Assembly (NCBI GenBank): GCA_944332295.1
Contig: CALVJR010000001.1
Coordinates: 136,598 to 200,597, forward strand
Length of the DNA stretch: 64,000 nucleotides
DNA from: an uncultured Bacilli bacterium
GTDB taxonomy: Bacteria > Bacillota_I > Bacilli_A > RF39 > UBA660
Direction: 5' to 3'
The translations under genes and the position numbers were made by a program. The notes beneath the pieces were generated by a model. The model saw only the letters and a program-made list of their open reading frames with translations, had not been told where the DNA came from and did no database searches. This document shows, one piece after another, positions 27,365 through 41,990 of this stretch (within the stretch, counting starts at the first letter, position 1; every line of letters begins with the position of its first letter).

Positions 27365-28381
27365 ATGCAAGAAAGTATGAGTGTAGAAGATGTTTTAAAA
27401 GCCTTAAAAGGTAAAATTTATTATTCTAAAGAAAAAAAACAAAAAGAAAGAAATATAGGAATAGAAGATATTTATAAAACCACAATAGTAATCGCTGTAA
27501 AAGACTTAACAGAAGAAAAAATAAATAGTTTAGAAGAATCCTCATTTTTTAGAAAGAATTATCAAAAAAACATCATAACAAACAATATAGATATCAATGA
27601 ATATCATGCACGATTAATAAGACGGTTAAACTCAGAACAAGAGATTAAAGCTTATTCTTTCTTACCAACAGGTCTCGGTCATTATGAAAATAAAAAAGAA
27701 TTAATGAATCAAATAGTAAGACAAGCATTACAAGAAGATAGAAAGTATATCTATGTATATATTGATGATTACGATATAGAAAGTCTAAATAAAAGTTTAG
27801 CGGAAATAACAGAAGAAATGACAAATACACTATTATTAATAATAGGAATAAATAAAGATGAGTCAACTTTAACAATATGGAAGAAAAAAGAAATTATCAA
27901 CGACTGGATTATTAGAAGACCAGAAAGTAATGAATATCGTACATTTAGTAAGATGGCTAAAAACTTTGAAAAATTATATAGAACCAAAAGAAAAGATATT
28001 TTTACAAGTTATGTTCCTTATGAATCAATAGAGTTTAATAGTTTATGTAATCCTCATCAAATGCGAATATTATTAATTTATGAACAAGATAAAGAAATGT
28101 TAGGTTTTATCGAAGCAGAACGAATTAATACAATAGGAAGTTATCGTTATACCCCTGCAAGAATCATAAGAATTCATCGAATATTCGTAGTAGAACATAG
28201 GAGAAGAGAAAAAATAGGAACAAGACTATATCAAGCAGTATTAGATTTCGCAAGAAAAGAAAGATATAGTAGAATCGAAGTTCAAGTTTATAATTTTACA
28301 CCAGAAGCACAAGCCTTTTTCGAATCATTCGGACTAAATATCTTAGCATATCAATATGAAACACCAGTATCAAAAAAATAA
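27365..28381 (+). CDS. Protein with C-terminal GNAT domain
   Basis: IFVVEHRRREKIGTRL..N..AQAFFESFG. Confidence 0.75.
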   Translation: MQESMSVEDVLKALKGKIYYSKEKKQKERNIGIEDIYKTTIVIAVKDLTEEKINSLEESSFFRKNYQKNIITNNIDINEYHARLIRRLNSEQEIKAYSFLPTGLGHYENKKELMNQIVRQALQEDRKYIYVYIDDYDIESLNKSLAEITEEMTNTLLLIIGINKDESTLTIWKKKEIINDWIIRRPESNEYRTFSKMAKNFEKLYRTKRKDIFTSYVPYESIEFNSLCNPHQMRILLIYEQDKEMLGFIEAERINTIGSYRYTPARIIRIHRIFVVEHRRREKIGTRLYQAVLDFARKERYSRIEVQVYNFTPEAQAFFESFGLNILAYQYETPVSKK

Positions 28382-28450
28382 TAATGTCAATTAAGAAAAA
28401 TTTTATCATAAGCAATTGACTTTTTATCAAATATACTTTATTATTAAGAT

Positions 28451-28550
28451 GCGTGATACATATCACGCCGATATCTCTCACGGTGTTTCAATGTGAGAGT
28501 ATATTCAACCGAACCCCCTGAAATTCCCCTCGAGAGAGGGGAATACTTTT
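28451..28550 (+). ncRNA. Candidate ~100-nt small RNA that serves as the integration target
   Basis: TTGACT-N17-TATTAT (28416-28444), hairpins GCGTGATA/TATCACGC and CTCTCAC/GTGAGAG, C-rich linker, terminator ATTCCCCTC/GAGGGGAAT plus T-tract. Confidence 0.55.
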
Positions 28551-28608
28551 GTTTATAAGGGATTTTTAACTATTTTGGATTTATCTAGATACCATACTAG
28601 ATACTAAA
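28514..28608 (+). repeat. attL: left end of element 1, with arm-type repeats at 28584-28608
   Basis: 28514-28550 is identical (37 bp) to 39355-39391. Similarity continues through TCTAGATACCATACTAGATACTAAA. Confidence 0.85.
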
Positions 28609-28630
28609 TTATTTTTTTATTTGAGTTTAT

Positions 28631-29749
28631 TTAAATACTTAGATTTAAATTATCCATAGTATTTTTTACATCAGTTAGATTATTTGGAAACATATGAGCA
28701 TATGTATCTAATGTTTCTTTAGTACTAGCGTGTCCTAAATATTTTGATACAGTTGTTACTGGTTGTCCAGTATTTATTAGTAAAGAAGCACAACTATGTC
28801 TAAAAGAGTGTAGTGGAATTCTTCGGATATCTGCGTTTTTAGCAATCCTACCATTAATTCTAGACATCATACCGAAAGTTAATGGTTCATGTTCTCCGAA
28901 GATAAACCATTTGTCATTGAAGCCATAGTACTTCTTTTTTTCATTGTATAAATCTACTAAATCATTATATAAAACTTCGGTAAGTGGTAAAGTTCTAATG
29001 CTTTTAGATGTTTTAGGTGGAGTTAGTTCATAATACTTTTGACTATCCTTTACACTATTAGCTTGTTTGGTAATAGATACTAATTTATTATTCCAGTCTA
29101 TATCAGACCATTGAAGACCTCTTGCTTCACCACGACGTAATCCACAATAATATAACATTTCAAACATTGCTTTATCATTTAGATTAGTAGTTCCTGTTAT
29201 ATATTTTTGGAATTCTTCAAAAGTGTAAACATCTTTTTCTTCTTTCATTTCATTAGGGTCTTTAAAGAACTCTATTTTTTTATAAAATTTCATTAGATTG
29301 ATATCATACATTTTCATTCCCCAATTAAGAATAATTTTAAGAAATTTTTGAACATCATTTCTAGTAGAACATTTAATAGGTTTATTCCATAAATCTTGTT
29401 GAAATTTATGATATAGATTTCCATCCATATCTTTTAATTTAACATTTTCAAAATCAGCAAAATATCTTCTTCTTTTTAAATATGTTTCCATTGTTCTTCT
29501 TCTAACTTTATTTTTTTGAGATTCAATATATTGGTCGGTTAGTGTACCAAATGTCATATCCATATCTCCACCAAATTCAACCTTACTATTTAAAAACTCT
29601 CTTTCAGCATTCATAGCATCTAATTTAGTTTTATAAGCTTTAGAAAACTTTTTATGCCATTTTCCATTTTTATCTTTTTCATTCCAATAATATTTATATT
29701 TACGACCGTCTTTGGTCCATTGATTTTTTGGTAATTTATATATTCCCAT
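28631..29749 (-). CDS. int: Tyrosine recombinase / integrase
   Basis: GLRRGEA (R), PKT (K), HSFRHS (HxxR), LGHA, TYAH (Y), with an N-terminal arm-binding-like region. Confidence 0.95.
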   Translation of the reverse strand: MGIYKLPKNQWTKDGRKYKYYWNEKDKNGKWHKKFSKAYKTKLDAMNAEREFLNSKVEFGGDMDMTFGTLTDQYIESQKNKVRRRTMETYLKRRRYFADFENVKLKDMDGNLYHKFQQDLWNKPIKCSTRNDVQKFLKIILNWGMKMYDINLMKFYKKIEFFKDPNEMKEEKDVYTFEEFQKYITGTTNLNDKAMFEMLYYCGLRRGEARGLQWSDIDWNNKLVSITKQANSVKDSQKYYELTPPKTSKSIRTLPLTEVLYNDLVDLYNEKKKYYGFNDKWFIFGEHEPLTFGMMSRINGRIAKNADIRRIPLHSFRHSCASLLINTGQPVTTVSKYLGHASTKETLDTYAHMFPNNLTDVKNTMDNLNLSI

Positions 29750-29836: not shown

Positions 29837-31219
29837 TCATCTCTCAAAATCATCTTTAGATTTTGAATGTTTTCTTAAATAACTACTAGTTTTATCAATA
29901 GCAAAATCTATATCATTTGCTTCATACCAAGTATATGGTATATGAAGAATATCAAATATTTTAGAAGTTAGTGAGAATATTTTATTTTGAATTTTCTTTT
30001 TAAATATCTTAAATTCATTAGTTATTTCTTCAAATTTATTTTTCCATATATTTATTTCATTATCTTTTTCACTAATAATTTTCTTTTGACTATCAATAAT
30101 TCTATTTTGTTCTTTATAAGTTTTACCTGATTTAAAATCATTAACTTCTTTAGTTAGAAGTTTAATTTCTAAATCCTTTTTAATATTATCTTCAGCAAGT
30201 TCTTTTGAGTAAGTAGATAGATTATCTATATCTTCATCTTTATATTGCTTAATAATACCTTTTTTAATAGGATTTAAGATATCTTTTGATGTTTCTTTAT
30301 CAACTTTATCAATAAATCTATTCTCGGCTTTATTTGCCTCTTTTAATAGCTCATTTTCTTTTCTTATTTCTTTATTTAAAGCATTTAATTCTTTTTGTTG
30401 TTTCATAGCATTAGTTAGATGAGTTTTATCTCCACCAATTTCACCTCTAAATAAGTTATAACCTTTTGACTTAATAAATTCGTTATAATCATCTTGAAGT
30501 AGAGTATAAGAAGCATTACCACCTTTTTGTTTCCAAAATTGATCTGAATTTAGAAATTTACCTTTAACTGTTTCATAGATATTATTTCCATTTTTATCTT
30601 TCTTTTGAATTGGTACTAATTTCTTTTCTCCTTTTTTATTAGTTATTTCGTGTTTTAATTGATGACCATTTTCATCAAGTTCAAATACTTTTCTTTTAAC
30701 TTCATTAACTACTGGAGTAAAATATATATGCATATGTGGAGTAGATTCATCAAGATGTATTGCTGCATATCTTATATTTTCTTTTCCTACAAAATCAGAA
30801 ATAAAGTTTAGACTTTCATCAAAAAATCTTTTTATTTCAGTTGGTAGTTTATGATTTTCATCTATAACAACATGTTTAATTGGTTTACCGGCATTATCTC
30901 CAGTTTTATAAACTTCTCCAGTATCTTTAAATTCCATTCCGTAATGTTCAAAGAATTCTTGACCACTTGTTATGATTAATCCATTCAATACTTTTGTACT
31001 TTTTTTATTTGGGTTATAGTTTATATTATTAGAATAAAGATAATCAAACGTTGAACTTGCTAGAGTAGGTCCATCATAATTTATTAATTCTATATTATAT
31101 GGAGTTCTAGTACTATCATATTTACCAGAACCTTTTCTTTCCTTTAATTCTTTATCAAGTCCACCAATATCTGATGCTTTAAACTTTTCTAATCGTAGTG
31201 CTTGTTTTCCTGAGTACAT
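29837..31219 (-). CDS. MOB_V (Pre/Mob) relaxase
   Basis: IHLDESTPHMHIYFTP (HxDExxPHxH), YDSTRTPYN, LQDDY..RG, C-terminal coiled coil. Confidence 0.88.
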   Translation of the reverse strand: MYSGKQALRLEKFKASDIGGLDKELKERKGSGKYDSTRTPYNIELINYDGPTLASSTFDYLYSNNINYNPNKKSTKVLNGLIITSGQEFFEHYGMEFKDTGEVYKTGDNAGKPIKHVVIDENHKLPTEIKRFFDESLNFISDFVGKENIRYAAIHLDESTPHMHIYFTPVVNEVKRKVFELDENGHQLKHEITNKKGEKKLVPIQKKDKNGNNIYETVKGKFLNSDQFWKQKGGNASYTLLQDDYNEFIKSKGYNLFRGEIGGDKTHLTNAMKQQKELNALNKEIRKENELLKEANKAENRFIDKVDKETSKDILNPIKKGIIKQYKDEDIDNLSTYSKELAEDNIKKDLEIKLLTKEVNDFKSGKTYKEQNRIIDSQKKIISEKDNEINIWKNKFEEITNEFKIFKKKIQNKIFSLTSKIFDILHIPYTWYEANDIDFAIDKTSSYLRKHSKSKDDFER

Positions 31220-31473: not shown

Positions 31474-32424
31474 TCATTCATTATTTTCAGAAGGTTCTTC
31501 ATAAGAACAATGCCATAATCTCTCATTAGCAGTTCTTTTACTTGTTATATGAAGACCTTCTTTCTCCAACAAACTTAGGTTTCTTTGAATTAAACCTCCA
31601 AGTTGTGTTGGAGTTAACAAAATATTTGTTTTAGATAAGATATCTGATATCGTATAATCAAAATCCTTCTTAGTAACTGCATATTTTATAAATAATAATA
31701 GATTATAATCAGTTTCATCATCAGTATTTTCATCTATAACGCTAAATGTTTGATTTTCATTTCTTTTCAAATTTAATTCTAATCTACTAAAATCTCTACC
31801 TTTATAATCTAAAGTTAGTTTATTACAATTATTTTTTGATTCTTTTAATTTCATAATTCCAGATGCGTCAGCAGTTAGTCCGACACTACCCATAATTCCA
31901 TTACTTTTATTTAAGTGATGTGTAACAAATAATGTACAGTTATATTTTCTACATATTTCTTTAAACTTTTTAAATACAACATTATTTATTTCTTGATAAT
32001 CATTTTGATTATAGTCACTATCAAATTTAATGTCTTTAAACATATCAATTATTACGAATAAAGGTTCTTTATCAAAGGTTAATTCATGAATATCTCTTTC
32101 AATATCTCTGATATAAAAATCTGGAATATCATCTATATCTATAATGTGTAATTTATCTACATTAGGTTTCAAATTCATTAATTTAAATCGGTCTTGTAAT
32201 TGATTTATATCGCCCTCTGTGGTAATATATAAGACATGAGAGGGATTTACTTTGAATCCTAAAAAATCTTCTCCAGTAGTAAGAGAGAAGGCAAGTTGCT
32301 GAGCAAACATTGACTTGCCAACCTTAGGATGAGATACAAGTAGATAAACTCCATTTGATATCATTAGGTTTTCGACGATGATATCTTTTTTTATGCTTTT
32401 ATTTAATTCATTTATCTGTTTCAA
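31474..32424 (-). CDS. AAA_25 / RepA-like helicase-fold replication protein
   Basis: SHPKVGKS Walker A, VLYITTE, VIID, VTHHLNK, GS.GL. Confidence 0.82.
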   Translation of the reverse strand: MKQINELNKSIKKDIIVENLMISNGVYLLVSHPKVGKSMFAQQLAFSLTTGEDFLGFKVNPSHVLYITTEGDINQLQDRFKLMNLKPNVDKLHIIDIDDIPDFYIRDIERDIHELTFDKEPLFVIIDMFKDIKFDSDYNQNDYQEINNVVFKKFKEICRKYNCTLFVTHHLNKSNGIMGSVGLTADASGIMKLKESKNNCNKLTLDYKGRDFSRLELNLKRNENQTFSVIDENTDDETDYNLLLFIKYAVTKKDFDYTISDILSKTNILLTPTQLGGLIQRNLSLLEKEGLHITSKRTANERLWHCSYEEPSENNE

Positions 32425-36181: not shown

Positions 36182-36904
36182 ATGAAAATAGTTACTTGGA
36201 ACATTGGTGAAGATGAAAGAAATGAAAATGGTAAATTAAATATAAATTCTTATAATTATATAGTAGATTTTATTAAAAAAGAAAATATAGATGTTATTTG
36301 CTTACAAGAAGCTATTATAAAATCAGATTATTTACCAAGCATAGCAAAATATATAAATGATAAAACTGATTTAAAATATTCAGTTGAATATGAATTGTCT
36401 GATTCTCATATTAACATTGGATGTAAAATGGGGATTGTTATCTGTTCTAGATATGAAATAACTAATTATGAAACATTACTATTAGATAATCCTAACTTAA
36501 TTTATTCAGTGGATGAAAATACAACTTATTATTCACATGATAAAGGATTTATTATTTCGAATATTCAAGGAATAAATATTATTACAGGTCATTGCTTACC
36601 ATTTCATGTATTTAAAGAAAATCCATTAGATTATTTAAGTATATTTGAAAAAGCAGATGACAAATTCATAAATGCTTATGATTATAATGATAAATTAGTA
36701 TTATGTGGAGATTTTAATTATGATGATGTTAATACTATATTTCCAAAAATAATGACTCATTGTAAAGATTTAATAAATGAGTCAACAAGAAAAGATAAAC
36801 AATTAGATCATTTTATTATAAGTAATAAATTAAATTGTTCTTATAATAAAGTTGTTGATAATATATTTGATCATAAATTAGGAATTTTTGAAATTTATAA
36901 TTAA
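36182..36904 (+). CDS. Endonuclease/exonuclease/phosphatase (EEP) family protein
   Basis: VTWNI, CLQE, GDFN, LDHF, FDH. Confidence 0.88.
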   Translation: MKIVTWNIGEDERNENGKLNINSYNYIVDFIKKENIDVICLQEAIIKSDYLPSIAKYINDKTDLKYSVEYELSDSHINIGCKMGIVICSRYEITNYETLLLDNPNLIYSVDENTTYYSHDKGFIISNIQGINIITGHCLPFHVFKENPLDYLSIFEKADDKFINAYDYNDKLVLCGDFNYDDVNTIFPKIMTHCKDLINESTRKDKQLDHFIISNKLNCSYNKVVDNIFDHKLGIFEIYN

Positions 36905-36952
36905 ATTAGAAATATATATATATAAATTACACTTTTGAAAGTGAGTGATATT

Positions 36953-37345
36953 GTGAAAGTATTAAGTTTAACTGAACCATATGCAACATTAATAAAAAAT
37001 GGAAGTAAAACTATTGAAACTAGAAGTTGGAAAACAAATTATAGGGGTAAACTATATATTCATGCAAGTTCAACAAAAATTCCAAAAGAATATAAAAATA
37101 ATGAAGCATTAATGTCATTAGTTAATTTAAATGAATTAAACTATGGTAATATAATTTGTTCTTGTGAATTAGTAGATTGTATTGAAATGACAGATAAATT
37201 TATAGAGGATATAAAGAAAAATAAAAATGAGTATATAACAGGTGTTTATGCTATCGGAAGATATGCGTGGATATTAAAAGATATAAAAGTATTAGATAAA
37301 CCTATTAAAGCTAAAGGACATTTAGGTATTTGGAATTTTGAATAA
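36953..37345 (+). CDS. ASCH-domain protein
   Basis: LSLTEPYATLI..GSKTIETRSW..YRG.LYIHAS, KGHLGIW. Start is uncertain (GTG 36953). Confidence 0.88.
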   Translation: MKVLSLTEPYATLIKNGSKTIETRSWKTNYRGKLYIHASSTKIPKEYKNNEALMSLVNLNELNYGNIICSCELVDCIEMTDKFIEDIKKNKNEYITGVYAIGRYAWILKDIKVLDKPIKAKGHLGIWNFE

Positions 37346-37385
37346 TTTTTAAATACAATATTAAATTATTAGATAAATTTAGATA

Positions 37386-37453
37386 AAAATGACACTGTGA
37401 CACTAAAAATGAGTGTAGGGTACTCACAAACAATGTGTCACTGTGTCATTTTT
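37386..37453. repeat. Long inverted repeat with tandem TGACAC units (terminator or protein-binding site)
   Basis: AAAAATGACACTGTGACAC / GTGTCACTGTGTCATTTTT, 19-bp arms with one mismatch. Inner TGAGTG/TACTCA hairpin, then a T-tract. Confidence 0.7.
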
Positions 37454-37496
37454 TTTAAATAAATTAGTTGAATTGATAGAAAAAATTGGTGATTTT

Positions 37497-37505
37497 TGAT
37501 ATAAT
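37497..37505 (+). promoter_or_regulatory. Extended -10 promoter of the RT locus
   Basis: TGATATAAT (TGnTATAAT). Predicted transcription start near 37512. Confidence 0.6.
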
Positions 37506-37511
37506 ATTCTC

Positions 37512-38012
37512 GTACTTAGGAACAGATAATAGTTTTATTTGGTACATTCAATTCGGTGAAAGTCCGAGGAATCCTTATAATGGGAGTATTAGCATTGCTC
37601 ATAGCAATAGCTAGGTAAATGATATGGAGTCCTCGTGGTTCGCTTGCAGACAAGCTGCAGCTCACCTACGAGTACTTACCATACATGACGTAAATTGCCA
37701 AACGTATGGAGATTAATTAAGATTTCAGGTTGCTGCTTTTCCCCTTTGTTTATTAGTTAATATATAAAGGAGGAATGCCTATGAAAAAGAAAAAGAAACA
37801 AAAAGTTATTGTTATTACAACAATTCTTGCATTTATTTTTCCAATTATGGTGAAGGTTTTAAATTTAGACTCTGATCAAATGACAACTTGCATAGTGTTT
37901 TATGGATTAGTAGTCAATTTGTACTCAAATTTTAATTTTGGGGAAGCCCTTCTAGTGAAGCTGAGTATTATCACTTAATTAATCGTTGATGTATGTTTGG
38001 CGTTTTTACGTT
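37512..38012 (+). ncRNA. RT-associated structured RNA (retron msr/msd-like) with an embedded ORF
   Basis: GC-enriched hairpin domain at 37550-37685 and a long-range stem between 37688-37721 and 37974-38011, directly upstream of the RT SD. Confidence 0.65.
37781..37978 (+). CDS. Small basic 2-TM peptide, candidate toxin/effector
   Basis: AAGGAGG SD at 37767-37773, 7 nt before ATG 37781. MKKKKKQK followed by two hydrophobic segments, 65 aa. Confidence 0.65.
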   Translation: MKKKKKQKVIVITTILAFIFPIMVKVLNLDSDQMTTCIVFYGLVVNLYSNFNFGEALLVKLSIIT

Positions 38013-38025
38013 AAAGAGGTGAAAA

Positions 38026-39207
38026 ATGAAAATCAAAGTAATAAAGAATAGTGATTCTAAACTATATAATAGAGGAAGCAAAAAATATGTAGCAGATTTA
38101 TTATCAGATAAAAATAAAAATATAATTTTTACAAAGAATGATTTAAATAATATCATTTATAAATATGATAAGAAAGAAATTATATTTTATGAAAGTAAGA
38201 AAACTAAAAAAAGATATAAAAGAGAACCAAAAGATTATACATCTAAAAAATATAGAAAATTTACTGATGTTCCAGAACCTAGAAAGACTGCATTAAAAAA
38301 ATTAAATAGTTATTTATCTGAATTAAGTATACCTGATTATGTGTTTGCTAAAACTGATGGTGGTTATGTAAAAAATGCTAGACATCATAGAGGAAATACT
38401 AATTTTTTGTTAATAGATATAGCGAGTTTTTATCCAAATTGCAAATTTAAAGAAGTTAAACGTTTTTTTATGTCAGGTGGTGGATTTAAAATGAAAAATG
38501 ATCTTGCACAAAGAATGGCAGAATTAGTAACTGTACCAGAGAAGAGTAATCCAAAAATAAGAGTAATCCCACAAGGATTTCCAACTAGTACATTAATAAG
38601 TTTCTTTGCATATAGAAAAATGTTTGCAGAATTAAATAAGATTGCTTTAGAAAATGACTTGGTATTTAGTACCTATGTAGATGATGTAACTTTTTCTACT
38701 AATAATGAAAAATTTGATTTCAATTCGATTTTAGAATCTATAGATGGAGTATTAGAAAAATATGGGCATAAAAGAAAAAAAGAAAAGACACAAATTTGTT
38801 TATTAAAAGATAGTAAATGCCCGACAATAACTGGTATATGGATAAAAAGACATAAAGTAAGAGCTTCTTCAAAAATGTATAAAAAGTTGATTACTAATTA
38901 TAGATGGCTTATATCTAATCCTATTATTGATGGTACTAGTTATTTAAATGCTTGGAAACATTTTGTTGTTTTAGATGGATTACTAAACACAATTGATTAT
39001 ATCGAACCAGTTAATAAAATAAAAAGAGATTATATTAGAAATTATTTAAATGAAAATAGAGCAAACTTTATACAAGGATTATCTCCATATACGAAAAAAT
39101 TTAATAGTAATTATTGGAAATCTAAATTTTATAACGCCTATAAATGTAGTGATTTAGAAAAATTCTATTTATCTAATAAAGATAAGTTAAAGAAAAAAAG
39201 AATATAG
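38026..39207 (+). CDS. Retron-like reverse transcriptase
   Basis: NARHH (retron region X NAxxH), IDIASFYP, PQGFPTS, YVDD catalytic motif, ITG (VTG-like region Y). No maturase or endonuclease domain seen. Confidence 0.9.
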   Translation: MKIKVIKNSDSKLYNRGSKKYVADLLSDKNKNIIFTKNDLNNIIYKYDKKEIIFYESKKTKKRYKREPKDYTSKKYRKFTDVPEPRKTALKKLNSYLSELSIPDYVFAKTDGGYVKNARHHRGNTNFLLIDIASFYPNCKFKEVKRFFMSGGGFKMKNDLAQRMAELVTVPEKSNPKIRVIPQGFPTSTLISFFAYRKMFAELNKIALENDLVFSTYVDDVTFSTNNEKFDFNSILESIDGVLEKYGHKRKKEKTQICLLKDSKCPTITGIWIKRHKVRASSKMYKKLITNYRWLISNPIIDGTSYLNAWKHFVVLDGLLNTIDYIEPVNKIKRDYIRNYLNENRANFIQGLSPYTKKFNSNYWKSKFYNAYKCSDLEKFYLSNKDKLKKKRI

Positions 39208-39215
39208 TTATTTTT

Positions 39216-39454
39216 TCTAGATACCAAAATCAGATACTAAACGTTTAAAATAAAGTTATTTTTATAAACTTTACTAAATTATGATAAAAGAAAAAGCCTT
39301 ATTTTATAAGACTTTAACTAATTAATAAATTGTTACGAACTGATAATAATATTTCCCCCTGAAATTCCCCTCGAGAGAGGGGAATACTTTTTTTGTAAGG
39401 AATTATTACTAATTTAGATTTTTCTAGACACCATACTAGATACTAAATTATTTT
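39216..39454 (+). repeat. Composite att junction: right end of element 1 plus left end of element 2
   Basis: 39216-39357 resembles 41904-41990, and 39355-39454 resembles 28514-28615. Confidence 0.85.
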
Positions 39455-39955
39455 CAATATATTTATAAATATGTTGTATTACTATCTGAAAATAAAAAAG
39501 TTGATAGAGAAGTTTTAGAATTAAGTGCTTTATTACATGATATTGCTATGACTGATAGAAGCTTAGATAGAACTAATCATAATGAATATGGTTCAGTTAT
39601 TGCAGAACAATTACTACGAAAAAATAATTATCCAGAAGATAAAATACAACTAGTGAAAAAATGTATTTTAAATCATAGTAGTAAACGAGCGGATTTTAGA
39701 ACAACAGAAGAAGAAAGAATATTAGTAGATGCTGATGGTTTATCACATTTTGATTCAATTAACAATTTATATTCTTTAGCACATAATGTCATGGAACTTA
39801 ATGATAAAGATACAATAAAATTTATCCAAGACAAATTAACCAAAGATTATAATGAAATAAGTGATAATTTGAAATGTTTGATTCAAGAAAAATATGACAG
39901 TGTTATGAATATAAAAACAATAGATGAATTGCTAACTATAAGTAAAGAGAAATAA
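39455..39955 (+). pseudogene. 5'-truncated HD-domain protein
   Basis: The frame upstream of ATG 39548 reads QYIYKYVVLLSENKKVDREVLELSALLHDIA, so the HD motif precedes the first ATG and no start codon lies before it. Confidence 0.75.
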
Positions 39956-40010
39956 TAATTTGTTACAAATATATGATATAATATAATAAAAATAGGAGAA
40001 TTTTAATTGT

Positions 40011-40406
40011 ATGAAAACGAGAATAGTATTAACTGGTATATTAAGAGATAAAGATTTATTTTTAGTAGTTAAGAGAAATGAAAATGATAATCTGTATCCT
40101 GGTTCTTGGGAGTTTCCAGGAGGTCATTTAGAAAAAGGAGAAACATTAAAGGATGGATTAAAAAGAGAACTTGAAGAAGAAATTGGTTTTACTGAAAATT
40201 TCAATCCAATTATTACTCATTATTTTGATGAATTAAACGAAAGAAATAACGAATTAATTCATGATTTAGAACTTGATTTTATCATAAATGTTGATAGTTC
40301 AAAAATAGATATTAAATTAAGTGATGAACACTCTGATTATAAATGGGTTACAAGAGATTCTGAATATTTAGATGATTTTATAAAAGATAAATTATCAAAT
40401 ATATAA
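40011..40406 (+). CDS. NUDIX hydrolase (MutT-like)
   Basis: WEFPGGHLEKGETLKDGLKRELEEEIG Nudix box. Confidence 0.92.
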   Translation: MKTRIVLTGILRDKDLFLVVKRNENDNLYPGSWEFPGGHLEKGETLKDGLKRELEEEIGFTENFNPIITHYFDELNERNNELIHDLELDFIINVDSSKIDIKLSDEHSDYKWVTRDSEYLDDFIKDKLSNI

Positions 40407-40504
40407 AAAAATAAGGGATTTTGAATTAGCCCTCATACAAATTTTGTACGGAAGTACAAATTCAGTGCTACCTGGACGAAAATGTAACTCCTAAATATAA
40501 GTTT

Positions 40505-40772: not shown

Positions 40773-41786
40773 GTGAAGTATATGGATAATACCAAAAATT
40801 TAAGTTCTTTAAGATCTATGATGAATATATCAGAAATGGTTCCATATTTAAAGCAAAAAAATATAAAATTTAATTTAATTTCTGAAGATGATGCGGAAGC
40901 ATATTTAAAATATAATAATAATTATTATAATGTAACTGCATATAAACACAATTTCCCAAAATATCCATCTCCTGCTGGAAAATATGAAGGACTATATCAA
41001 GATTTAGATTTTGCATATTTAAAAGATATGGCAATTATTGATTATAGAATCAGATTACTATTATTTAAAATGATAATTGATATTGAACATTATTTAAAAA
41101 TAAAAATATTAAATACAATAGAAGAAATCGAAGATGAGGATGGATATAGAATAGTTAATTTGTATTTGGAAAAAGATTTCAATGATGAAAAGTTTCCTAA
41201 AAGAGTTCATAATAGTATTTTTAAAAAAGTAGGTAATGAATATTATCAAAAAATATTTTCTAAATATGATGTTGATAAAGATAAAAAGTTAGAAAATATA
41301 CCAATATGGGAATTCCTTGAAATTATTACATTTGGCGAATTGGTTAATTTCTATGATTTTTACACTAAGAAATATAATTTAGTGGATGAAAATAGAGATG
41401 TATATATATTAAGAGATATTGTGAAATTAAGAAATGCTGTTGCACATAATACATGCATATTAAGTGAATTAAATAAGAAAGATAATACTTATCCAGCATC
41501 ATATAAAATTGTACAATATTTAAAAGATTGTAATATAGGGAAAGCAACAAGAAATAATAAGCTTCGTAATTCAAGAATTAGACAAATTACATATACACTT
41601 TATATGTTTAATGAAATAGTAACAAGTGATGGTATAAAAGAAAATGTAAATAAAGAAATAAATAAATTATTTTTTGATAGAATAATTTTACATAAAGAAT
41701 ATTATAATAATAATGAACTATTAAAATCAATATATTCATATTTCAAAAATATAATTGAAAAAAATTATGTGAATGTTGATAAATAG
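40773..41786 (+). CDS. Abi family (AbiD/AbiF-like) HEPN protein
   Basis: NNYY....Y, D..LR......IE..LK, PIWEFLEIITFGEL, HEPN RNAVAH (RX4H). Start may be ATG 40782. Confidence 0.88.
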   Translation: MKYMDNTKNLSSLRSMMNISEMVPYLKQKNIKFNLISEDDAEAYLKYNNNYYNVTAYKHNFPKYPSPAGKYEGLYQDLDFAYLKDMAIIDYRIRLLLFKMIIDIEHYLKIKILNTIEEIEDEDGYRIVNLYLEKDFNDEKFPKRVHNSIFKKVGNEYYQKIFSKYDVDKDKKLENIPIWEFLEIITFGELVNFYDFYTKKYNLVDENRDVYILRDIVKLRNAVAHNTCILSELNKKDNTYPASYKIVQYLKDCNIGKATRNNKLRNSRIRQITYTLYMFNEIVTSDGIKENVNKEINKLFFDRIILHKEYYNNNELLKSIYSYFKNIIEKNYVNVDK

Positions 41787-41886: not shown

Positions 41887-41903
41887 TGCACAAAATTAAA
41901 TCT

Positions 41904-41990
41904 TCTAGATACCAAAATCAGAACTAAATACAAAAAAAGTTATTTTTATAAAATTTAATAAATTATTACAAACTGATATAAATATTTCCC
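41904..41990 (+). repeat. attR: right end of element 2
   Basis: TCTAGATACCAAAATCAGA..AAAGTTATTTTTATAAA..AACTGATA..AATATTTCCC matches 39216-39357 with an internal deletion. Confidence 0.8.

Follow-up and report, generated by a model that had tools for sequence, protein, structure and literature searches.

How a retron might hold a toxic small protein in check without a dedicated protein regulator is the question raised by the locus at 37497-39207 of a 64,000-nt stretch of DNA from an uncultured Bacilli bacterium (GenBank assembly GCA_944332295.1, contig CALVJR010000001.1; the whole stretch is referred to as the window, and coordinates are window positions). An earlier note on this DNA had described a promoter, a hairpin-rich domain, a 65-aa basic open reading frame (ORF) and a reverse transcriptase (RT) here, and all four were found in the sequence and the ORF list at the positions it gave. 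The locus is a compact 1.7-kb module consisting of one promoter, one ~500-nt hybrid RNA and two genes, which encode a small protein (SP) and the RT (Table 1). The 3' end of the SP gene, with its stop codon, is tied by a ~35-bp long-range stem to sequence upstream of the gene. By analogy with studied systems, the module probably belongs, as a self-contained and stripped-down form, to the Type VI retrons, which act against phage by abortive infection.

We collected related loci from species-representative genomes (17, of which 15 have 39-93% RT identity) and from metagenomes (44). For most loci the homology to other genomes sets in between 37476 and 37512 (for many at precisely 37497) and breaks off at 39202. 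Because homology in most loci spans only ~37497 to 39202, the 1.7-kb unit is autonomous; the 3' flank is outside the conserved module in most other genomes. The promoter scored 10/12, with TG, and was the top promoter-like site on the plus strand in a consensus scan, although the scan alone is weak since such sites were no commoner than in shuffles. The TG-n-TATAAT element is kept across 25 aligned loci. No credible gene was found in the ~270 nt between the promoter and the SP gene, and the RT gene starts 47 nt past the SP stop.

The RT matches Pfam RVT_1 (3.3e-15), and its best PADLOC match is RT_VI (4.1e-51, 172 bits), with a gap of 76 bits to the next model, RT_III-A (95.5 bits); the best 25 PADLOC matches are all retron RT models. 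RT_VI was also the top model for the divergent clade members L014, L017, L018 and L044 (4/4 tested), at 161-192 bits compared with 73-90 for the next. When a profile of 17 relatives was compared with the PDB, 14/14 matches were retron RTs, the best being Retron-Kva2 (1.2e-17). The RT contains the motifs N117-A-x-x-H121, Y217-V-D-D220 and I268-T-G270, and N117, H121, YVDD and T269-G270 are invariant in the 17 relatives. The retron-like RT with NAxxH, YVDD and ITG motifs of the earlier note is thus borne out by the PADLOC assignment as well as by the nearest solved structures. In NCBIfam, the RT fell under every curated cut-off (best retron_St85_RT, 96 bits vs 235). At 393 aa, it is ~100 residues longer than the 278-288-aa RTs of the canonical Bacteroidota loci (L020 and L060-L063), which consist of SP, a helix-turn-helix (HTH) gene and RT, and the RT_VI model covers residues 36-327. 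Clade RTs are 381-426 aa long, with extensions of constant length across the clade. No HTH-like region was detected in the RT, either by Pfam on the termini or by profile comparison (hhalign probability 0.2%). Broken RTs are seen in two metagenome copies, one split into 66-aa and 314-aa ORFs (L055, 2298-3532) and one truncated to 245 aa (L041, 2501-3238); the SP is intact in both.

The region 37505-38030 (526 nt) folds with a minimum free energy (MFE) of -142.6 kcal/mol, compared with -112.05 +/- 5.79 kcal/mol for 100 shuffles (z -5.28), none of which was as stable. The long-range stem is present in both the MFE and the centroid fold of this region, and its arms were also recovered by a repeat finder. 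It pairs ACGTAAA (37688) with TTTACGT (38005), GCCAAACGTAT (37697) with GTATGTTTGGC (37991) and, in a perfect 11-nt arm that spans the stop codon TAA, GATTAATTAAG (37711) with CTTAATTAATC (37974). RNAalifold predicted 83 pairs for 16 upstream regions, 49 of them with compensatory changes. The stem accounts for 32 pairs with 95.5% of cells paired in these loci, and both-side changes were found in 16/32 pairs, a number reached by 0/500 shuffles (6.8 +/- 1.7). Sliding the partner by 1-3 columns left just 33-39% paired. A larger alignment, in which 48 regions were cut to 25 at <96% identity and which reaches down to 37-40% RT identity, gave a consensus of 107 pairs with 88.7% of cells paired (slid controls 37-46%). 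Here 73/107 pairs had changed on both sides, compared with 41.7 +/- 3.6 in shuffles (0/500 reach the observed value). The consensus structure was derived from the same alignments, which biases the slid control in its favour; the many independent compensatory changes of the stem do not depend on this bias. In helices 10-13, 23/31 stem pairs are compensatory, for example with A-U replaced by G-C in 10/25 loci and C-G by U-A in 2/25 within an otherwise invariant GCCAA/UUGGC core. The enclosure of the ORF by a long-range stem, as the earlier note had proposed, is therefore found in the folds and covaries in both the 16 and the 25 loci, and the G-U differences that it had ascribed to selection on RNA pairing form part of a real covariation pattern. 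It had also suggested two inward extensions of the stem: TTCAG/CTGAG (helix 13) is compensatory in 4/4 pairs, while TTCCCC/GGGGAA is a real pairing option, but one that competes with pairing of the Shine-Dalgarno (SD) sequence.

Four covarying hairpins, H1 to H4, make up a 5' domain upstream of the stem (Table 1). A 30-aa ORF runs through H4 (37624-37716) and is open in ten close loci. It was rejected as a gene because it has no SD, is replaced by other frames or sequences in distant loci, and shows changes that are compensatory pairs of the hairpin; its open frame most likely just follows from conservation of the RNA. No Rfam family reached the gathering score in the whole window, with only a chance-level plastid match in 36500-40500.

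The SP gene starts with the ATG at 37781, 7 nt after GGAGG; an upstream ATG at 37775 was discarded as too near the SD for use. A 58-74-aa ORF is located directly upstream of the RT in 46/46 related loci with a callable RT ORF, of which 45 were found automatically and one, that with the split RT (L055), was taken by hand from the ORF listing. The ORF is also present in L011, where the RT runs off the contig. The earlier note had made its reading hang on homologues sharing the upstream stem and the internal ORF, and they do: the stem covaries in the 25 loci and the ORF accompanies the RT in all 46. SP relatives share a basic N-terminus, a strong hydrophobic segment, a short polar turn and a second hydrophobic segment, together with an invariant Phe in an SNFNF-like motif. 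On the Kyte-Doolittle scale, the SP itself is strongly hydrophobic at residues ~6-30 and less so at 34-48. Of the two transmembrane (TM) segments that the earlier note assigned to the peptide, one is thus strong and the other weaker on this scale. The grand average of hydropathy (GRAVY) is +0.80 for the SP and +0.21 to +1.22 for 24 clade members, with a best 19-residue window of 1.5-3.2.

The ratio of nonsynonymous to synonymous substitution rates (dN/dS) of the SP was 0.07-0.38 for 11/12 pairs, the remaining pair having 0.94. Over the final 17 codons (49-65), identity at third positions is 0.94, as opposed to 0.63-0.77 elsewhere, and that at positions 1+2 is 0.87. In a distant subclade the SP stop comes earlier, so that the same conserved 3' stem strand is untranslated. 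Because this strand is conserved even where it is untranslated, the SP 3' end sequence is kept for the RNA. On these substitution patterns, the SP gene is genuine and is constrained at the level of the protein as well as of the RNA. A profile search of public metagenomes gave 132 SP relatives (clusters), 0 of them with a Pfam domain, and a search of the ESM Atlas with the SP gave no usable match. An NCBIfam lactococcin_972 match was sub-threshold (E 0.0057) and treated as noise, and the Joint Genome Institute (JGI) label 'lipoprotein signal peptidase' on two SP relatives probably reflects automatic misannotation of a hydrophobic peptide.

Just inside the long-range stem lies a strand, A, that pairs with the SD of the SP gene in the consensus, and this A:SD pairing is part of the full-length MFE structure of 13/13 representatives. 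Holding the SD open costs 5-19 kcal/mol, and A then re-pairs with B, an SD-like segment in the 3' coding end of the SP, in 10/13 representatives. Among 11 subclade representatives, cognate A:B duplexes have a mean energy of -13.8 kcal/mol compared with -9.7 kcal/mol (standard deviation 3.1) for non-cognate ones, and A:SD duplexes -13.0 compared with -10.5 kcal/mol. In each of the six divergent representatives, the cognate A:B duplex is among the top two of the 11. A and B change together in divergent members, L017 and L018 each having a 9-10-bp perfect A:B duplex with quite different sequences. We read these folds as a two-state model: in the OFF state the SD would be hidden by A, and in the ON state A would be captured by the decoy B, the long stem extended inward and the SD left free. 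As far as sequences can tell, the covariation for such a bistable translational switch is unusually clear.

The earlier note did not recognise this layout from any described retron class, and in this it has been overtaken: the layout is published for Type VI retrons, namely Retron-Vpa2 (Zhang et al. 2025, bioRxiv 10.1101/2025.10.22.683967) and Retron-Sen3 (Garcia-Rodriguez et al. 2026, bioRxiv 10.64898/2026.04.27.721009), and the expectation that the locus would match no described type has largely failed, as the Type VI hybrid RNA has this layout. According to Zhang et al., the Type VI operon reads ncRNA-SP-HTH-RT (non-coding RNA first), and Retron-Vpa2 has a ~470-nt 'hybrid RNA' (hyRNA) that unites the msr-msd with a translationally repressed toxic SP and is closed by inverted repeats. 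The ribosome-binding site (RBS) and AUG of the Vpa2 SP lie in stem-loops, the HTH represses reverse transcription, and mutation of the HTH is toxic. In the same account, multicopy single-stranded DNA (msDNA) of 63-86 nt arises from a long 5'-arm stem-loop, not from the SP gene, and SP translation needs this msDNA, which derepresses it. We liken H4 to that stem-loop and regard it as the candidate template (msd) for complementary DNA (cDNA). For Retron-Sen3, Garcia-Rodriguez et al. describe an IR1-IR2 long-range stem that flanks the SP, an SP coding region under RNA-level selection, and an HTH antitoxin that binds SP and RT and is required for viability, a post-translational mode of control. Both relatives defend against phage in these two reports. 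The proposal in the earlier note of an RT template RNA that doubles as toxin mRNA is right in kind, though such a mechanism had reached print only months before.

The present module resembles Retron-Vpa2, as described in the preprint, in its ~470-500-nt structured RNA, which combines a retron-type 5' domain with the coding sequence of a (here putatively) toxic SP, in the inverted repeats around the SP, in an SP RBS and AUG sequestered in stem-loops, in the position of the SP gene upstream of the RT and inside the hybrid RNA, and in its Type VI-family RT, assigned by PADLOC RT_VI. It differs from the published description in several respects: Vpa2 has an HTH gene between SP and RT, and none is found here; its RNA pairs its 3' end with the first arm, while the 5' strand of the present stem comes after the 5' domain; its conserved 7-nt direct repeats were not found here; its SP has 55 aa and a hydrophobic C-terminal helix, whereas the SP here is membrane-like; and its host is a proteobacterium (Vibrio parahaemolyticus) rather than a gut Bacilli known from a metagenome-assembled genome. 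With Retron-Sen3 (cl2075 lineage), the preprint's description is shared as regards a stem whose 5' arm belongs to the ncRNA and whose 3' arm lies immediately past the SP stop, a sequestered SP RBS and RNA structural selection on the SP coding region. The HTH antitoxin that binds the RT in Sen3 has no counterpart here, the SP families are unrelated, and IR1-IR2 is reported without significant covariation, as opposed to the 16/32 and 23/31 compensatory stem pairs given above. Type IV retrons (for example Retron-Eco6/Ec48), which belong to the same RT clade 3 as type VI (Mestre 2020, PMC7736814), likewise couple an RT to a two-TM membrane effector, but there the effector is larger and its gene is described as lying downstream of the RT gene or overlapping it instead of residing within the ncRNA, and RT_IV is not among the PADLOC best 25 matches for the RT here. 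With the layout already described as the Type VI hybrid RNA, what is new is the lack of an HTH, the membrane-type SP, the longer RT and the Bacillota host.

The HTH is presented as the defining accessory gene of type VI by Mestre 2020 (PMC7736814), is given for about 78% of 158 type VI entries by Garcia-Rodriguez et al., and in a 2026 survey (PMC13712802) HTH_3 is listed as top accessory in only 21/93 type VI candidates, 23 of the candidates being Bacillota. Going by these published figures, HTH-less type VI RTs have already been counted. In the article texts searched, no description of their RNA, of their SP or of the way they avoid toxicity was found. In an unrooted tree, 25 HTH-less RTs split from L019, L058, three canonical RTs and two outgroups with support 98/97 (the L002 row, a wrong ORF with branch length 10, was disregarded). 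L019 (367-1530, an Enterococcus dongliensis contig) and L058 (775-2037) carry RT_VI-type RTs (217 and 242 bits) with no HTH ORF in the available upstream sequence; the RT frame of L019 stays open over ~75 additional codons and has a hydrophobic end, and in L058 a 79-aa ORF abuts the RT. HTH-less arrangements may thus exist outside the studied clade. In single-sequence folds of the canonical L060 and L020, a 9-bp stem is found on either side of the SP gene.

Several observations weigh against placing the module within Type VI and against reading it as a working retron. No HTH ORF was found between SP and RT in the clade loci (0/46), although the same ORF listing did find the HTH in L020 and L060-L063, and in place of the Cro/C1-type HTH that lies next to or overlaps the RT in Type VI there is only the 47-nt gap between SP and RT. 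The clade RTs score lower with RT_VI than those of the canonical SP-HTH-RT loci L020 and L060 (236-251 bits), and, as the unrooted tree has no type IV or V references, the clade could be a sister of type VI rather than a group inside it. The SP has no sequence relation to the canonical Bacteroidota SP of L060 (hhalign probability 0.5%); two canonical SPs have a GRAVY of -0.24 and -0.38 and no hydrophobic segment, clade SPs being far more hydrophobic. Published Type VI SP families (cl2075, cl2760, cl3272, cl3897 and 'Large') are characterised by a common fold rather than sequence. In the hybrid RNA, no cDNA, branching G, a1/a2 pair or msr/msd boundary was identifiable, and across 25 sequences no conserved Vpa2-like 7-nt direct repeat links the candidate msd to the riboregulator. 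Direct-repeat candidates (AAGCUG in 13/25, UAUGGAG in 11-12/25 and GAGUAUUA in 9-10/25) are confined to the close subclade, are invariant there and were set aside as no evidence. Furthermore, cDNA synthesis, toxicity, defence and trigger are all transferred to this locus by analogy.

RNA libraries were also considered. Sequence from part of the window occurs in 13 RNA-library runs from animal gut, and contigs of four runs from two studies (P1 and P2) were compared. Contig pieces over the hybrid RNA and the RT showed zero differences from the window. The P1 contigs cover 37524-37924 (depth 29, compared with 4.9-8.9 for RT pieces and 4.5 upstream) and 37444-38010, while P2 covers only the hybrid RNA (37532-37960, and 37524-37691 plus 37699-38002); locus parts that lack contig cover are not evidence of silence. 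Where contigs have their 3' end at 38002-38010, this matches the point at which the long-range stem stops. These contigs give a weak hint of hybrid RNA expression, tempered by the fact that contigs cannot prove transcription, ends or abundance and that DNA can contaminate such libraries.

Taking Retron-Vpa2 as a guide, the RNA in an uninfected cell would adopt the OFF fold and no SP would be made. The RT would bind the 5' domain and make single-stranded cDNA from a portion of it, H4 being the likeliest. Infection would let cDNA accumulate or disturb the RT-RNA complex, and the anti-SD strand would swap to the SD-like decoy, freeing the SD; the SP would then be translated, insert in the membrane and stop the infected cell. 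As the lineage is without an HTH protein, restraint of the toxin would rest on the RNA switch alone or on the ~100 extra residues of the RT. A minimal retron that dispenses with a protein regulator, in which the bistable RNA switch alone silences the membrane toxin and the RT or its cDNA flips it on infection, is a possibility that we put forward tentatively.

Were the extra RT residues responsible instead, the module might be constitutively armed as in Sen3, with basal SP translation, post-translational neutralisation of the SP by the RT, release of the SP on infection and an RNA switch that only tunes; the ~35 extra N-terminal and ~65 C-terminal residues of the RT would then take the role of the HTH. 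Such a post-translational mode is reported within type VI, where the HTH binds SP and RT (Garcia-Rodriguez 2026), and the RT is indeed longer than in canonical loci on both sides of the region covered by RT_VI, with extension lengths that are kept. No domain is detectable in these extensions, however, and the sequestration of the SD in the MFE structures of all 13 representatives, with its considerable opening cost, argues for translational repression; we regard the armed arrangement as unlikely. In type I toxin-antitoxin mRNAs (hok/sok, tisB/istR), a small hydrophobic peptide is encoded and its SD is hidden by long-range 5'-3' pairing. The module has the same kind of small hydrophobic, toxin-like membrane peptide, 5'-3' pairing and hidden SD, and it is carried by an integrative mobilizable element that encodes an integrase and a Mob_Pre relaxase (see below). 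It might therefore be an addiction or stabilisation module of that element, a membrane toxin silenced in cis with an RT whose role is other than phage defence. Unlike in type I systems, however, control appears tied to the RT, which is always present with invariant catalytic motifs. Nor is an antisense RNA antitoxin evident (promoters were only scanned by consensus) or a second small gene conserved, and the module is found in many unrelated flanks. Both studied relatives, moreover, are reported to defend against phage (Zhang 2025; Garcia-Rodriguez 2026), and an addiction role seems quite improbable to us. The sharp edges of the 1.7-kb unit and its different genomic contexts would also suit a selfish retroelement, one that multiplies by reverse-transcribing its own RNA and has the small ORF as an accessory gene, yet the promoter, which lies upstream of the transcription start, is part of the conserved unit, and because of this the module appears to be copied at the DNA and not the cDNA level. 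The RT is a retron RT and not one of the group II intron or diversity-generating retroelement kind; no target-site duplications or template/variable repeats were seen, nor any copies starting exactly at the transcript 5' end with poly-A or target-site duplications. We give this last explanation hardly any credence.

The RT was found in 0/20 other same-genus genomes, and in a class sample it was found at E <= 1e-40 in 1/399 scored genomes, the window's own only (two further genomes were unscored). In public metagenomes the lineage comprises 89 RT clusters at E <= 0.001. The module is not restricted to the mobile element of the window; it is mobile and sporadic, as usual for defence genes. In the window, ~96-nt direct repeats at 28514-28612 and 39353-39452 bound a ~10.8-kb integrative mobilizable element. 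A same-genus genome (G016) has the empty site, in which window 28376-28615 is joined directly to 39355-39458, and one RNA-library contig from run X1 shows a loose end at 39355 similar to the empty-site junction. Since it lies between the direct repeats and G016 has the empty site, the retron is taken to be cargo of this element, which also holds an HTH gene and several small enzyme genes in addition to those in Table 1; the retron comes last, at the right end.

A ~150-nt conserved element was observed right after the stop codon of six defence genes or operons, in 6/6 copies examined. The preceding genes are the retron RT, an AbiD-like gene (in the window and in G016), an OLD/AriA-like ATPase-TOPRIM gene, an AbiEi-AbiEii-AEP_TOTE/PrimPol-helicase operon and a PDC-M49A/B pair. 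At its start the ~150-nt element has a word like the right part of the attachment (att) repeat of the mobile element, and at its end the repeat's left part, together with a variable terminator hairpin; it occurs in 2/20 other same-genus genomes and in 0/20 outside the genus. It may be a scar or recognition site of integrase-driven, cassette-wise insertion of defence genes. The AbiD/Abi_2-like gene (40773-41786; Pfam Abi_2 6.3e-24, PADLOC AbiD 1.7e-18) is situated beyond the mobile element, 1.6 kb downstream of the retron, and has its own 3' copy of the ~150-nt element. Between the Nudix and AbiD-like genes, 40405-40486 has 75-80% identity to sequence 100-200 nt upstream of the retron modules in L005, L006 and L023-L027, and no Rfam match. 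This similarity points to equivalent sites that are taken up by retron cassettes in some genomes and AbiD cassettes in others.

Table 1. Positions of the features of the retron module and of its surroundings (window coordinates unless a locus is named)
Feature	Position	Strand	Basis and remarks
Promoter	37477..37505	+	-35-like TAGAAA at 37477, 17-nt spacer, extended -10 TGATATAAT at 37497-37505
Hybrid RNA (hyRNA-like), ~500 nt	37511..38011	+	Fold z -5.28, 107 consensus pairs; both ends inferred
Hairpin H1, conserved GAUAAUAG-type loop	37512..37545	+	Helices 1-2: 9 pairs, 7 compensatory, 88-90% paired; loop bases invariant
Hairpin H2	37552..37568	+	Helix 3: 5 pairs, 94% paired, 2 compensatory
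Hairpin H3	37589..37614	+	Helices 5-6: 8 pairs, 7 compensatory, 84-90% paired
Hairpin H4, longest (~61 nt), invariant GUG/CUAC core	37623..37683	+	Helices 7-9: 24 pairs, 19 compensatory
Long-range stem, 5' strand	37688..37728	+	Helices 10-13; helices 11/12 97.1%/99.3% paired, 8/11 pairs compensatory in each
Anti-SD strand A, core CCCCUU 37741-37746	37729..37748	+	Helix 16: 7 pairs, 5 compensatory, 82% paired
SP RBS GGAGG (37769-37773) and start codon (37781-37783)	37765..37783	+	Sequestered in helices 16-17
SP, 65-aa basic hydrophobic protein, candidate membrane toxin	37781..37978	+	ORF, homologues, dN/dS, GRAVY
Segment B, SD-like decoy in SP 3' coding end	37940..37949	+	Duplex energies, constrained folds
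Long-range stem, 3' strand, with SP stop codon 37976-37978	37961..38011	+	Fold, repeat finder, covariation, third-position identity
Retron reverse transcriptase, 393 aa	38026..39207	+	Own SD ~38015-38021; Pfam, PADLOC, motifs
3' flank	39208..39385	+	~150-nt repeated element, then intrinsic terminator hairpin 39364-39385
Tyrosine integrase	28631-29749	minus	Within mobile element
Mob_Pre relaxase	29837-31219	minus	Within mobile element
AAA_25/DnaB-like gene	31474-32424	minus	Within mobile element
~150-nt element copies	39208-39365, 41896-41990; L065 4903-5047, 8994-9155; L066 5151-5300; L067 1134-1196		

According to their preprints, Vpa2 and Sen3 both need the HTH to stay non-toxic but differ in how control is exerted, with translational control through msDNA in the former and post-translational control through the HTH in the latter. 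The HTH-less lineage is a natural experiment on which of these regulatory layers is essential. At 1.7 kb and two genes the system is easy to dissect, and covariation provides a two-state RNA model with named nucleotides; a compact Gram-positive retron with RNA-gated translation could also be useful for retron technology. If the module does prove to work without a protein regulator, which we hold to be possible though doubtful, the HTH of the studied Type VI retrons would be an add-on, and the RNA switch would be the ancestral core of the family.

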